DNA from: Eledone cirrhosa
Lineage: Eukaryota
DNA: 64,000 bases
Assembly: GCA_964016885.1 (NCBI GenBank)
Contig: OZ024743.1
Span: forward strand, 80,352,001-80,416,000
Reading direction: 5' to 3'
Numbering within the stretch: the stretch's first letter is position 1; each line of letters starts with the position of its first letter. Made by a program: the position numbers and the translations under genes. Of this stretch, positions 33,702 to 58,222 are shown one piece after another. A model generated the notes under the pieces. That model searched no databases, was not told the origin of the DNA, and saw nothing but the letters and a program-made list of their open reading frames with translations.

Positions 33702-35163
33702 ATGTTTATATAGTACTAATAATATACCATGTTTATATAGTACTAATAATATACCATGTTTAAATAGTACTAATAATATACCATGTTTATATAGTACTAA
33801 TAATATACCATGTTTATATAGTACTAATAATATACAATGTTTATATAGTACTAATACTATACAATGTTTATATAGTACTAATAATATACAATGTTTATAT
33901 AGTACTAATAATATACCATGTTTCTATAGTACTAATAATATACCATTTTTATATAGTACTAATAATATACAATGTTTATATAGTACTAATACTATACAAT
34001 GTTTATATAGTACTAATAATATACAATGTTTATATAGTACTAATAATATACCATGTTTATATAGTACTAATAATATACAATGTTTATATAGTACTAATAA
34101 TATACAATGTTTATATAGTACTAATAATATACCATGTTTATATAGTACTAATAATATACCATGTTTATATAGTACTAATAATATACCATGTTTATATAGT
34201 ACTAATAATATACCATGTTTATATAGTACTAATAATATACAATGTTTATATAGTACTAATAATATACCATGTTTATATAGTACTAATAATATACAATGTT
34301 TATATAGTACTAATAATATACCATGTTTATATAGTACTAATAATATACCATGTTTATATAGTACTAATAATATACAATGTTTATATAGTACTAATAATAT
34401 ACCATGTTTATATAGTACTAATAATATACCATGTTTATATAGTACTAATAATATACCATGTTTATATAGTACTAATAATATACCATGTTTACATAGTACT
34501 AATAATATACCATGTTTATATAGTACTAATACTATACAATGTTTATATAGTACTAATAATATACCATGTTTATATAGTACTAATACTATACAATGTTTAT
34601 ATAGTACTAATAATATACAATGTTTATATAGTACTAATAATATACCATGTTTATATAGTACTAATAATATACAATGTTTATATAGTACTAATAATATACA
34701 ATGTTTATATAGTACTAATAATATACCATGTTTATATAGTACTAATAATATACCATGTTTATATAGTACTAATAATATACAATGTTTACATAGTACTAAT
34801 AATATACCATGTTTATATAGTACTAATAATATACCATGTTTATATAGTACTAATAATATACCATGTTTATATAGTACTAATAATATACCATGTTTATATA
34901 GTACTAATAATATACCATGTTTATATAGTACTAATAATATACCATGTTTATATAGTACTAATAATATACCATGTTTATATCGTACTAATAATATACAATG
35001 TTTATATAGTACTAATAATATACCATGTTTATATAGTACTAATAATATACCATGTTTATATAGTACTAATAATATACCATGTTTATATAGTACTAATAAT
35101 ATACCATGTTTATATAGTACTAATAATATACCATGTTTATATCGTACTAATAATATACAATGT
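33702..35163. repeat. 27-bp minisatellite (atgtttatatagtactaataatatacc), ~54 copies
   Basis: Strict 27-bp period with cc/ca variants and no spacers. Confidence 0.97.
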
Positions 35164-37942: not shown

Positions 37943-37982
<40 letters not shown>

Positions 37983-38273
37983 AAAGTAAGTCCATAGAAT
38001 CATTTGATAAAATATATACAGTATTTCTTCTACCAATTAGCATAATCAACCACATAAAAAATCAATTAAATGAGGCTATAAGTTTAAAATATAACTACGA
38101 AGAAACAATAGATAAGTAAACGTTAGCTATTTTATCCGCTATCTACATCCGCAGAAGATTTACCTAGTATTTCTAATAGCCCGTAGAAATTGACTAGACA
38201 TATAGTTAACCATACATAATTAGGTACAAAATCAAAGTTAGAAGAAATAACGTACATAAACATACCAAAAACA

Positions 38274-38358
38274 TGTTTCTACCCCCTGGGGTTTCATTCG
38301 CTTTTTGGAAACATCCGATCATGGATAAATCAACGAGTTTCGAAATCATCAGGAAACA
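38274..38358 (-). ncRNA. Type I hammerhead ribozyme (family G)
   Basis: tgtttc-CTGATGA-tttcg...cgaat-GAAA-cccc(ag)gggg-TA-gaaaca. Confidence 0.8.
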
Positions 38359-38812
38359 AACTCAATTGGACAAAGATTTTTCTTAAATGATCCCCGCCAG
38401 ACACGAATTCAAAATGGCTAAGAATTGTCACATGGCCAGTGGTCAAGCCAGAAAGCTTGTGATTGGTGCCTGACGGCGAGTAGACTGGTTGCTAGAAAGC
38501 GCAGCCGAATACTGCCTAAAGTTTGACTCAACCTTACGGGAGTATATAAAATACAGAGGTTTACATAGACACAAACTAGACTGACCCATATATATATATA
38601 TATATATGTTTTTTCAACCATTCACGGTGTGGCTCAATGACGAATTAATTAATTAAAAGTATTCGGCTGCGCTTTCTAACAACCAGCCTACTCGCCGTCA
38701 GGCACCAATCACAAGCTTTCTGACTTGACCACTGGCCATGTGACAATTCTTAGCCATTTTGAATTCGTTTCTGGCGAGGATCATTTAAGAAAAATCTTTG
38801 TCCAATTGAGTT

Positions 38813-38897
38813 TGTTTCCTGATGATTTCGAAACTCGTTGATTTATCCATGATCGGATATTTCAAAAAAGCGATTGAAACCTCCGGGGATAGAAACA
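38813..38897 (+). ncRNA. Type I hammerhead ribozyme (family G, slightly decayed)
   Basis: tgtttc-CTGATGA-tttcg...cgatt-GAAA-cctccgggga-TA-gaaaca. Confidence 0.65.
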
Positions 38898-39172
38898 TGT
38901 TTTTGGTATGTTTTTGGTATGTTTCTTCATAGATACATTTTAAACTTATAGCCTCGTTTAATTGATTTTTTTATGTGGTTGATTATGCTACTTTGGAGAA
39001 GAAATACTGTATATATTTTATCAAATGATTCTATGGACTTACTTTCGTATATATTGCTCTGATTGTTGATTATTTAATTAATTAATTCGTCATTGAGCCA
39101 CGCCGTGAATGGTTGCCAAAAACATATATATATATCTATCTATGGGTCTGTCTAGTTTATGTATATGTAAAC

Positions 39173-39404
<232 letters not shown>

Positions 39405-42194: not shown

Positions 42195-45155
42195 AAGCTA
42201 CCAGAGAGGGTATATAATATATATGACATGGATATACCACTGAGGGTATAGAATATATATGACACGGAGCTACCAGCGAGGGTATATTATATATATGACA
42301 TGGAGACACCAGTGAGGGTATATTATATATATGACATGGATATACCAGCGAGGGTATATAATAAATAAGACATGGATATACCAGTGGGGGTATATAATAT
42401 ATATGACATGGAGATACCAGTGAGGGTATATAATATAGGAGACATGGAGCTACCAGTGAGGGTATATAATATATAAGACATGGAGATACCAGCGAGTGTA
42501 TATAATATATAAGACATGGAGATACCAGTGAGGGTATGTAATATATATGACATGGAGCTACCAGTGAGGGTATATAATATATATGACATGGAGATACCAG
42601 TGAGGGTATATAATATATAAGACATAGAGATACCAGTGAGGGTATATAATATATAAGACATGGTGATACCAGTGAGNNNNNNNNNNNNNNNNNNNNNNNN
42701 NNNNNNNNNNNNNNNNNNNNNNNNNNNNNNNNNNNNNNNNNNNNNNNNNNNNNNNNNNNNNNNNNNNNNNNNNNNNNNNNNNNNNNNNNNNNNNNNNNNN
42801 NNNNNNNNNNNNNNNNNNNNNNNNNNNNNNNNNNNNNNNNNNNNNNNNNNNNNNNNNNNNNNNNNNNNNNNNNNNNTAAGACATGGTGATACCAGTGAGG
42901 GTATAAAATATATGAGACATGGTGATACCAGTGAGGGTATATAATATATAAGACATGGTGATACCAGTGAGGGTATATAATATATAAGACATGGAGATAC
43001 CAGTGAGGGTATATAATATATAAGACATGGTGATACCAGTGAGGGTATATAATATATGAGACATGGTGATACCGGTGAGAGTATATAATATATAAGACAT
43101 GGTGATACCAGTGAGGGGTATATATTATATATGACATGGTGATACCAGTGAGGGTATATAATATATAAGACATGGAGATAGCAGTGAGGGTATATAATAT
43201 ATAAGACATGGTGATACCAGTGAGGGTATATAATATATATGACATGGTGATACCAGTGAGGGTATATAATATATAAGACATGGTGATACCAGTGAGGGTA
43301 TATAATATATAAGAGATGGTGATACCAGTGAGGGTATATAATATATATGACATGGAGATACCAGTGAGGGTATATAATATATATGACACGGAGCTACCAG
43401 CGAGGGTATATAATATATAAGACATAGAGATACCAGTGAGGGTATATAATATATAAGACATGGAGACACCAGTGAGGGTATATAATATATATGACATGGA
43501 GACACCAGTGAGGGTATATAAATATATGACATGGAGACACCAGTGAGGGTATATAATATATAAGACATGGAGACACCAGTGAGGGTATATAATATATATG
43601 ACACGGAGCTACCAGCGAGGGTATATAATATATAAGACATGGTGATACCAGTGAGGGTATATAATATATATGACATGGAGATATCAGTGAGGGTATATAA
43701 TATATATGACATGGAGACACCAGTGAGGGTATATAATATATATGACATGGAGACACCAGTGAGGGTATATAATATATAAGACATGGTGATACCAGTGAGG
43801 GTATATAATATATATGACATGGAGACACCAGTGAGGGTATATAATATATAAGACATGGTGATACCAGTGAGGGTATATAATATATATGACATGAAGACAC
43901 CAGTGAGAGTATATAATATATATGACATGGAGACACCAGTGAGGGTATATAATATATAAGACATGGTGATACCAGTGAGGGTATATAATATATATGACAT
44001 GGAGACACCAGTGAGGGTATATAATATATAAGACATGGTGATACCAGTGAGGGTATATAATATATATGACATGGAGACACCAGTAAGGGTATATAGTATA
44101 TATGACATGGAGACACAAGTGAGGGTATATAATATATAAGACATGGTGATACCAGTGAGGGTATATAATATATAAGACATGGTGATACCAGTGAGGGTAT
44201 ATAATATATATGACATGGAGATACCAGTGAGGGTATATAATATATAAGACATGGTGATACCAGTGAGGGTATATAATATATAAGACATGGAGATACCAGT
44301 GAGGGTATATAATATATAAGACATGGTGATACCAGTGAGGGTATATAATATATGAGACATGGTGATACCGGTGAGGGTATATAATATATATGACATGGAG
44401 ACACCAGTGAGGGTATATAATATATATGACATGGAGACACCAGTGAGGGTATATAATATATATGACATGGTGATACCAGTGAGGGTATATAATATATATG
44501 ACATGGAGACACCAGTGAGGGTATATAATATATAAGACATGGTGATACCAGTGAGGGTATATAATATATATGACATGGAGATGCCAGTGAGGGTATATAA
44601 TATATATGACATGGAGATACCAGTGAGGGTATATAATATATATGACATGGAGATACCAGTGAGGGTATATAATATATAAGACATGGAGATACCAGTGAGG
44701 GTATATAATATATAAGACATGGATATACCAGTGAGGGTATATAATATATATGACATGGAGATACCAGTGAGGGTATATAATATATATGACATGGAGACAC
44801 CAGTGAGGTTATATAATATATAAGACATGGAGACACCAGTGAGGTTATATAATATATATGACATGGAGACACCAGTGAGGGTATATAATATATATGACAT
44901 GGTGATACCAGTGAGGGTATATAATATATATGACATGGAGACACCAGTGAGGGTATATAATATATATGACATGGTGATACCAGTGAGGGTATATAATATA
45001 TATGACATGGAGATACCAGTGAGGGTATATAATATATATGACATGGAGATACCAGTGAGGTTATATAATATATAAGACATGGAGACACCAGTGAGGGTAT
45101 ATAATATATATGACATGGAGACACCAGTGAGGGTATATAATATATAAGACATGGA
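42195..45155. repeat. 36-bp minisatellite (gagggtatataatatatatgacatggagataccagt), ~3 kb, spanning an assembly gap
   Basis: Strict 36-bp period. The MSYILYTLTGIS ORFs are its translation. Confidence 0.97.
42677..42876. other. Assembly gap (200 N)
   Basis: Run of n. Confidence 1.
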
Positions 45156-49448: not shown

Positions 49449-49541
<93 letters not shown>

Positions 49542-49723
49542 ATATCTGTAGAAAACAATCTCAAGGAAAACAATGAGAGATGGTTTAATATAATTAATAA
49601 TACATACACTTAGCATTGTATGAGTGACCTCAGATTCCGAGGTCCAGTTATGGCCACCACTGTAAAGTGGTGGGGTCGTTTCAAACCTGATCTCACGTCG
49701 GGCACCAAGACTATATATATATA

Positions 49724-50682
49724 TAGTCTTGGTAAGTGTGTACGCATTTCTTCTAGCTATAATTTTATACCTAATTGTGTATGGTTCACGTTATATTTAG
49801 TCGATTTCCACGTGCTGTTGAAATGTTGGGTAAATATTCTATAGCGGTCGGCCTCGAAGAGATTGCTGTCGTTTATTTATCTTATATTTCTTCGTAGGAG
49901 CCTTTTAATCTTATAGTCTGGTCTAATTCATTTTTTTATGTGGTTGATTATGCTAGTTGAGAGAGGAAATGGTGTATATATATTATCAAATGGACATACT
50001 TTATAGTATATTGCTCTGATTGTTTAATTTATTAATTCATCATTGAGCCACATCGTGAATGGTTGCCAAAACATATATATCTATGACTTTGTTTAGTTTG
50101 TGTATATGTAAATCTTTATATTTAATAATCTCCCATTAGGTTGAGATGCAATTTGGGCAATATTGGGCTGCGCTTTCTAGCAACCAGCCCACTCGCCGTA
50201 AGCAACCAATCACATTCTTTCTGACTTGACCACTGCCACGTCACGATTTTTAGCCATTTTGAATTTGTTTCTGGCGAGGATCATTTTTGAAAATTACTTG
50301 TCCTATGAGTTTGTTTCCTGACGAGTTCGAAGCTCGAGATTTTATCCTTAATAGGATATCTCAAAATGCGAACGAAACCCAAGGATAGAGACATAATCCT
50401 GGTAAGTGTGTACGCATTTCTTCTAACTATAATTTTACACCTAATTGTGTATGGTTAACGGTATATTTAGTCGATTTCCACGTGCTGTTGAAATGTTGGG
50501 TAAATATTCTATGGCGGTCGGCCGCGAAGAGATTGCTGTCGTTTATCTATCTTATATTTCTTCATAGGTGCCTTTTAATCTTATAGCCTGGTCTAATTGA
50601 TTTTTTATGTGGTTGATTATGCTAATTGGGAGAGGAAATGGTGTATATATATTATCAAATGATACTATGGACGTACTTTATA
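49724..50682 (+). mobile_element. Partial-tandem retrozyme-like element (family G subfamily), 670-bp monomer, ~1.4 units
   Basis: 49724-50005 directly repeats at 50394-50682, with the HHR immediately before the second repeat. (TA)n on both sides. Confidence 0.85.
50312..50393 (+). ncRNA. Type I hammerhead ribozyme (family G subfamily)
   Basis: tgtttc-CTGACGA-gttcg...cgaac-GAAA-cccaagga-TA-gagaca. Confidence 0.75.
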
Positions 50683-50698
50683 ATATATATATATATAT

Positions 50699-50823
<125 letters not shown>

Positions 50824-51050
50824 AATATATATATATATATTAATATATATAGAGATAGATAGATATAGATATAGATATAGATCTACACACACACAAAAAC
50901 ATATATATATACATATATTCGCATGCATACACGAACTTATGTTCGTGTATGCATGCACACACACACACATACCTATATTGATATATAATTATACATTCAC
51001 ACATATATATATATATATATATAAATACATACATACATATATACAGTACA

Positions 51051-51824: not shown

Positions 51825-51887
51825 TATAATATATATATATAAATATATGTATATAACATAATATGATATAATATATATATATATATA

Positions 51888-52086
51888 TGAAAAAGTATGA
51901 CCCCGACGGCAGAGGTCAAGCCGTTTCGACGGCTATTTCTGGACTCAGAGTCCAGAAACAGCCGTCGAAACGGCTTGAGCTCTGCCGTCGGGGTCATACT
52001 TTTTCAGATTTTCACTCTACTACTCTAAGTATTGAGTACTCTGGTTCGTTATGGTCCATCTGGTTTCTTACCACATTTCCTTCGTT
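51888..52086. mobile_element. Family A fold-back element
   Basis: Arms meet at ggactcagagtcc. The plus arm runs to ccttcgtt(TA)n. Confidence 0.8.
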
Positions 52087-58144: not shown

Positions 58145-58222
58145 ATTACCTCATTACCAGAGGTTTCCCGAATGAGGCGAATACGAAAGAAACGTCTTCA
58201 TTCGTTCGTCAGACGAGGCAAT
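58145..58222 (-). ncRNA. Type I hammerhead ribozyme (family H)
   Basis: attgcctcgt-CTGACGA-acgaatga...tcattcgg-GAAA-cc(tct)gg-TA-atgaggtaat. 10-bp stem I with G.U pairs. Confidence 0.85.

Follow-up and report, generated by a model that had tools for sequence, protein, structure and literature searches.

A Penelope-type retrozyme family of Eledone cirrhosa whose genomic 5′ ends peak at a predicted hammerhead cut

A 64,000-nt stretch of the Eledone cirrhosa genome (GenBank assembly GCA_964016885.1, contig OZ024743.1, positions 80,352,001 to 80,416,000 of the forward strand; hereafter the window, from whose first letter positions are counted unless another locus is named) carries, within a (TA)n microsatellite, a 1.4-unit copy of a dispersed, non-coding 677-nt repeat with one predicted hammerhead ribozyme (Table 1). 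An earlier note, made from the letters of this DNA, had described a 670-nt partial tandem longer than one unit, and BLAST self-alignment bears this out: 49730-50011 matches 50400-50688 at an offset of 670 with about 90% identity, the repeated part running from about 49726 to 50011 and recurring 670 nt on, to 50682, where a long (TA)n follows. As the first unit at this locus has a 1-nt insertion and an 8-nt deletion, the family unit is ~677 nt. The arrangement is a partial tandem, not a pair of flanking long terminal repeats (LTRs), and the (TA)n on both sides masks any target-site duplication. Counting unit positions from the first base after the predicted ribozyme cut (position 0, the equivalent of which is 49718 at the left end of the copy), the copy starts somewhere between +5 (49723) and +16 (49734). 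The exact base is not fixable, because the TA run and a fold-back blur the junction; the note, which placed the start at 49724, was right to put it just past the cut-equivalent, but the single base it gave is finer than the junction allows. The commonest junction in the family, between (TA)n and ATCC, is at +8 (6 of the 24 stops at 0..+17), which here corresponds to 49726, and this is most simply where the copy starts.

The ribozyme reads, in order, GTTTC (50313-17), CTGACGA (50318-24), stem II (50325-73), GAAA (50374-77), CCC-AA-GGA, TA (50386-87) and GAGAC (50388-92), and it is this layout of segments that upholds the originally predicted cut after 50387. An alignment of 30 copies of young and old subfamilies supports a type I hammerhead by covariation. 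Little or no variation is seen in the core bases, and stem I, only 5 bp long, is paired in 99.3% of the cells of the alignment, with slid controls reaching at most 53%. Stem I has undergone compensatory changes (UA in 14, CG in 10 and UG in 6 copies at one pair; GC, GU and AU at another), and the covariation score was reached by none of 500 shuffles, a control that is inflated by the relatedness of the sequences. The short stem III is in many copies a palindrome or close to one (CCCTAGGG, CCATGG); at the window locus, GGGTA has changed to GGATA, which breaks one pair. A type III reading of the ribozyme, made by eye, was dropped since the copies show stem I covariation, and an Rfam scan of the window at the gathering threshold gave no matches, missing the hammerhead. 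Ribozymes with a short palindromic stem III are described as acting in dimers and being weak in vitro (PMC4209133). Because it has a single ribozyme, the copy at this locus could not release a monomer alone.

Searching the 3.0 Gb assembly with the unit yielded 5,931 candidates; among the 40 scored, the other full-length matches are 86-94% identical. Whole units mostly measure 671-684 nt and contain no open reading frame (ORF) longer than 74 aa except for TA-repeat frames. Copies picked by similarity have a common 3′ end at about +295, which we refer to as site A and behind which (TA)n begins; their truncation is at the 5′ side. The lengths of 161 A-ended copies range from at most 295 nt (71 copies) through up to one unit (52) to longer than that (38). 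Room for two ribozymes exists in just 5 of these 161; two consecutive ribozymes are present at loci L002, L008, L024 and L026, and one at the window locus. Directly upstream of plain 5′ ends there is (TA)3 or more in 114 of 166 cases.

The 5′ ends of the family pile up just downstream of the predicted cut. We scored 217 tracts picked without regard to their 5′ end: 92 of the 396 exact site-A matches, in chromosome order among 100 listed, less one duplicate (sample A); 70 of the 77 matches of a variant end, leaving out the window's own copy (sample B); and all 58 matches of three point-variant patterns at +41..+75, less 2 already in sample A (sample D). Each tract was extended 5′-ward against real units, with censoring of those that ended in a same-strand jump (11), were interrupted by other insertions (5) or reached the locus edge (1); L044, probably interrupted as well, was scored as an end at +56. 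Twenty-five 5′ ends fall at 0..+17 compared with 6.4 expected (x3.9, P 2e-8), and the excess becomes x4.1 once adjusted for TA microhomology and late pass. This interval ranks highest among all 18-nt windows of the unit and begins abruptly at 0, with 2 ends in the 18 nt before the cut, and the stronger stem II shows no excess. A narrower interval, 0..+10, which was first noticed in samples A and B (11 ends versus 2.5), was replicated in the independent sample D (8 versus 1.6, P 2e-4). The cut-ending copies are not the product of one burst, since their mean pairwise distance is 8.0%, as compared to 8.7% in read-through copies.

The peak at 0..+17 is real, and it is likely a trace of self-cleavage in the RNA from which the DNA copies were made, cleavage itself being deduced here from DNA only. 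The earlier note had proposed that the template's 5′ end was made by self-cleavage, and that 5′ ends without a peak at the cleavage site would refute this; the peak is there, but the proposal holds in part, as only 25 of 163 passages over the site stop at it. For the window locus, the fourfold excess translates into odds of about 3 in 4 that its own end reflects the cut. We found no mapping of genomic 5′ ends to a hammerhead cut in the literature searched, which left subscription papers mostly outside and included no supplements.

The passages that continue beyond the cut bear on the form of the template. In 84 segments from 114 long tracts (one segment is a mis-match outside the ribozyme), the cut columns hold at most 2 gaps. 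Between +18 and +273, stops occur at a rate of 0.0018 per nt during the first pass and about three times as often, at 0.0054, during the second. The best change-point of the rate lies at −365 to −400, one full unit from site A being −382. This rise after one unit points to circles besides linear cut RNA and would fit a circular template on which the enzyme meets its own cDNA, although the same could result from protein bound at the upstream site A. The tandem halves of one locus are near relatives (15 of 17 within the nearest 10%); rare variants are mostly not common to both halves, and those that are do not suffice to prove that one circle was the template. Folds computed for a circle are slightly to moderately more stable than those of shuffled sequences (z −2.2 to −4.9, 12 shuffles). 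Taken further, the same data could mean that all templates are circles: the ribozyme would still cut, the peak would mark the enzyme stalling at the ligation junction, and there would be no linear template longer than one unit. The stop rates at the site, similar on both passages (22/150 on the first, 3/13 on the second), agree with such stalling, and so do the seamless read-through junctions, the climb in stopping after one unit and the close kinship of the halves. However, it would require an unusual junction bond, the poor sharing of rare variants between the halves does not show a single-molecule origin, and DNA alone cannot tell stalling from run-off; we consider it unlikely that circles account for all of the templates.

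A second, weaker pile-up of 5′ ends is seen at +233..+281, on the 3′ arm of a predicted long rod (window 49730-49995) in which +12..+60 pairs with +232..+275 and at the 3′ arm of which 5′ ends are somewhat enriched. The +12..+275 rod has little compensatory support, the oldest subfamily being only partly in that alignment. This weaker pile-up would fit a reading in which the ribozyme is inactive in vivo and the peak at the cut arises from a structural pause at the base of the ribozyme fold or from TA microhomology, with the window locus an ordinary 5′ truncation. Many of the ends at the cut site do join via 1-3 nt of TA microhomology, and similar minimal hammerheads cleave poorly in vitro according to the report cited above (PMC4209133). 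Yet the excess remains after the microhomology adjustment, its edge coincides sharply with the cut, the stronger stem II shows none, and stem I is just 5 bp, all of which makes an inactive ribozyme improbable.

The 3′ ends of the copies are set at two sites. Site A followed by TA has 396 and, in a variant form, 77 exact matches, and a second site, B, followed by TA has 163; as two control positions followed by TA gave no exact-pattern matches, sites A and B are specific. They are 114 nt apart and both end in TTTATA, which could pair with (TA)n. An inverted partner is found at the 5′ side of 33 of the 161 A-ended copies. In 31 of these 33 the partner's outer end lies at site B, about +410; in 2 it lies elsewhere, and in none at site A. 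The converse is seen in the first 30 of the 163 B-ended tracts, 9 loci of which are common to the A-ended set: 23 are joined to a tract ending at or within ~15 nt of A and one more is so joined across an insertion, while 5 stand without a partner and 1 starts just 3′ of the cut. Pairs of an older subfamily obey the same A/B rule, both at L273 and in the window, where the insertion at 37972-39174 joins two tracts, one on the minus strand with its end at site A and one on the plus strand with its end at site B. The 114-nt spacing together with this strict pairing is what sets the family apart from known Penelope tails. Both arms of the 37972-39174 pair hold a hammerhead. In a single case (L206, 720-1125), an inverted tract starts at the 3′ side of the cut, not at A or B, and lies outside a TA run, which possibly reflects priming on a cut monomer end.

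The fold-back at the left end of the window copy, pointed out in the earlier note, does exist and is a perfect palindrome, but it derives from the flank and is not part of the element's RNA. It consists of ACCAAGAC (49704-11), (TA)7 (49712-25) and GTCTTGGT (49726-33), and is present in two overlapping short-read contigs (run X1), possibly from the assembled sample itself. Its left arm pre-existed, because 49536-49711 is an older repeat, relatives of which read CGGGCGCCAGGAC and then AAAATT; they read GCGCCAGGAC or GCACCAGGAC. The right arm departs from the family sequence ATCCTGGT at two positions, and since both differences are complementary to the locus flank, it was most likely templated from there. 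Known routes to such an arm are snap-back of a TA end during repair and later quasi-palindrome correction. The fold-back is not ribozyme-related; that it is an inverted copy of the element's own start was considered and rejected, as the left arm belongs to the older repeat. There is a 54-bp flank fold-back around (TA)n at L184, and L061 and L090 have fold-backs of the element's own start. Such structures are uncommon (3 of 166), and a flank-swap control gave 1-5 matches, hence we claim no enrichment.

Two further explanations can be dealt with briefly. That a shorter insertion grew into the partial tandem as DNA, whether through a local duplication or through unequal crossover, akin to the DNA-level growth that a preprint proposes for retrozyme satellites (bioRxiv 10.64898/2026.07.22.740005), is already disfavoured and very hard to credit: the two halves per locus are indeed close relatives, but the dispersed copies have one 3′ end, one period, 5′-only truncation and a continuous length series, and so few of them could hold two ribozymes. 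We give just as little credence to a self-priming antisense transcript as the template, as suggested for inverted Penelope copies in an earlier study (PMC3846280), since, despite the fold-backs at some junctions (L061, L090, L184), truncations go toward the 5′ end of the ribozyme-sense strand, piling up 3′ of its cut, and both arms of the inverted insertions start at fixed sense-strand sites.

The locus is a non-autonomous, Penelope-type retrozyme copy (a non-LTR retrozyme), a kind of element already known, and the retrozyme or Penelope-like class initially assigned to it stands. Lacking an ORF for reverse transcriptase (RT) and GIY-YIG endonuclease, it is not an autonomous Penelope-like member; the Penelope-like traits that it does have are 5′-truncated partial tandems, a fixed 3′ end, an inverted 5′ copy tailed at one end and insertion in AT-rich or microsatellite DNA, with 3′ ends leading into (TA)n. 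The genome carries many RT plus GIY-YIG elements, and we infer an autonomous partner of Penelope type. A lead only for this partner is a 5′-truncated RT plus GIY-YIG element directly behind the old family pair at L273 (2055-5135), with a hammerhead-like core ~150 nt before its CTTTATA+(TA)n end; at the same locus a short piece of the flank is repeated inverted beyond the whole insertion.

Animal non-LTR retrozymes are described as having units of 150-450 bp (Cervera and de la Pena 2020, PMC7229834; Li et al. 2026, bioRxiv 10.64898/2026.07.22.740005). The family resembles them, as there described, in being a non-coding, AT-rich head-to-tail repeat with a type I hammerhead per unit and in sharing its genome with Penelope-like elements. 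It differs in its 677-nt unit, 150-450 bp being a described range rather than a strict criterion, and in consisting, unlike their multimers, mostly of dispersed partial copies. Like Penelope-like pseudo-LTR elements (PMC8557442, PMC3846280, PMC4209133), it shows truncation at the 5′ side and partial tandems, includes an inverted 5′ copy, can carry a tail at one end, targets microsatellites and has a hammerhead whose helix III is short and palindromic, whereas it is without their RT/GIY-YIG ORF. The tail known at one end of inverted Penelope insertions is 30-40 bp long (PMC8557442, PMC3846280); that of the family is 114 nt and strictly tied to one arm of the inverted insertion.

In vitro, the green anole element Poseidon uses two start sites that define the tail, with no strand difference (Frangieh et al. 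2024, PMC11167929). Likewise, the tail of the family is defined by two internal start sites that lie downstream of its hammerhead, and the target is AT-rich. However, the Poseidon start sites are not homologous to the target, whereas both family sites end in TTTATA and could pair with (TA)n; Poseidon uses the same sites for both strands, whereas A and B are split between the sides of the break; and Poseidon has no detectable RNA ends from the ribozyme, whereas the genomic 5′ ends of the family peak at the cut. In L1 twin priming, a second priming event results in an inverted 5′ segment, joined by microhomology. The family is similar in that second priming yields an inverted segment, but its second site is fixed and lies downstream of the first, and the cDNAs overlap freely in sequence.

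Our explanation, which as a whole we hold with a probability of about 0.72, is that the repeat was likely pasted into (TA)n by a borrowed Penelope-type reverse transcriptase-endonuclease. Transcripts of multi-unit copies would self-cleave, probably as dimers, into linear RNAs with cut ends and, upon ligation, circles. Reverse transcription would then be primed from a nick in (TA)n at site A, the UUUAUA end of which could pair with the TA primer, and copying would stop at random, at the cut 5′ end (15% of passages) or, with increased frequency, after one full unit, where the enzyme on a circle would run into its own cDNA. The break would be closed on its other side either by end-joining to the TA run or by second priming at B (~1 in 5 insertions), the latter producing the inverted partner. 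In the case of the window locus, copying would have begun at the fixed internal site, gone through one ribozyme junction and run off at the next cut 5′ end, and the TA-ended flank may have folded back, templating GTCTTGGT, during repair or by later quasi-palindrome correction.

Several points weigh against this explanation. The cut is read through in 138 of 163 passages, and most templates would thus have been sealed or uncut at the ribozyme site; the cut-ending copies cluster weakly by sequence (P 0.066); copies ending at the 3′ side of the cut in (TA)n gave no exact-pattern matches; and later recombination between tandem halves could also produce the rise in stopping after one unit. No autonomous partner with the unit sequence was found in 50 GIY-YIG loci (150 scored of 10,597 candidates), in which the unit sequence occurs only in neighbouring family copies. 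As for the anole element, it could do without its ribozyme in vitro, RNA-seq gave no reads with an end at the cut, and the two strands shared their start sites (PMC11167929).

More tentatively, and at slightly less than even odds, the family may be a genomic fossil record of the whole Penelope/retrozyme cycle: hammerhead cleavage of the transposition template in vivo, reverse transcription on circular RNA with a barrier after exactly one turn, and ordered A-then-B priming. If so, the first nick would always prime at A and the second always at B, 114 nt downstream, and the Penelope 'tail' would tell that the second strand had been primed. The literature searched yielded no quantitative signs of cleavage in vivo, of a one-turn barrier or of ordered A/B priming. 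Bearing on the role of the hammerhead in Penelope-like elements, genomic ends provide a count-based sign of a cut-RNA template; the counts also point to the sense strand as the one copied and to a strict rule for the tail. Copy ends can be counted in like manner wherever a genome with such elements has been assembled, and the short non-coding unit lends itself to assays of cleavage and priming.

The features of the locus and its surroundings are collected in Table 1. We take the motifs upstream of the ribozyme to be of the CCAAT-box and CACGTCA types, with a putative promoter function; within that region, ACCAATCAC is retained in both older subfamilies in the alignment.

Table 1. Positions of the repeat copy, its parts and neighbouring features in the window
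Feature	Position	Strand	Basis
Older-subfamily insertion of the same family	37972..39174	.	76-86% identity to unit
Older, unrelated dispersed repeat in the left flank; the fold-back has its left arm in the final 8 nt	49536..49711	.	42 matches, 75-86% identity
Perfect 15-bp palindrome centred on (TA)7	49704..49733	.	Sequence
(TA)7, left remnant of the microsatellite target	49712..49725	.	Sequence; (TA)n beside family 5′ ends
First, near-complete unit, from ~+8 after the cut-equivalent to the next predicted cut	49726..50387	+	Unit alignments
Internal copy of start site A, ACTTTATAG, at about +295	49998..50006	+	
Start site B, AAATCTTTATA, at about +410, 114 nt after A; outer end of inverted partners	50110..50120	+	
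Candidate internal promoter with motifs of the CCAAT-box and CACGTCA types, upstream of the ribozyme	50205..50244	+	
Type I hammerhead with short stem III and near-palindromic loop; predicted cut after 50387	50313..50392	+	
Second, partial unit, from the cut to site A (presumed start of copying)	50388..50682	+	
(TA)n, right remnant of the target	50683..50850	.	Sequence

A flank shared by L025, L044, L077 and L294 was considered as the start of a subfamily and rejected, since L077 and L294 show a repeat inserted inside the copy. This inserted repeat (L077 near 2300-3260; also L025, L044 and L294) is ~650-950 nt long, starts with ACTAG, ends with TTTTATATATATAG and enters family copies at an A^ATTG-like site; it resembles Helentron-associated elements.

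Elsewhere in the window, a near-perfect fold-back of ~60 bp (51886-52010, −109.7 kcal/mol) forms one end of another repeat, which is bounded by TA runs and has CTTCGTTATA+(TA)n as its end; sequence like it is found next to the family copies at L008 and L077, and this is possibly another TA-targeted element with an inverted end. A pattern scan picked up a second, unrelated type I hammerhead-like motif at 58217 on the minus strand (CTGACGA...GAAA, short stem III). The window is very microsatellite-rich and also contains kilobase-scale minisatellite arrays at 2952-5489, 14216-16158, 33702-35163 and 42199-45155, with units of 27, 18, 10, 27 and 36 nt.
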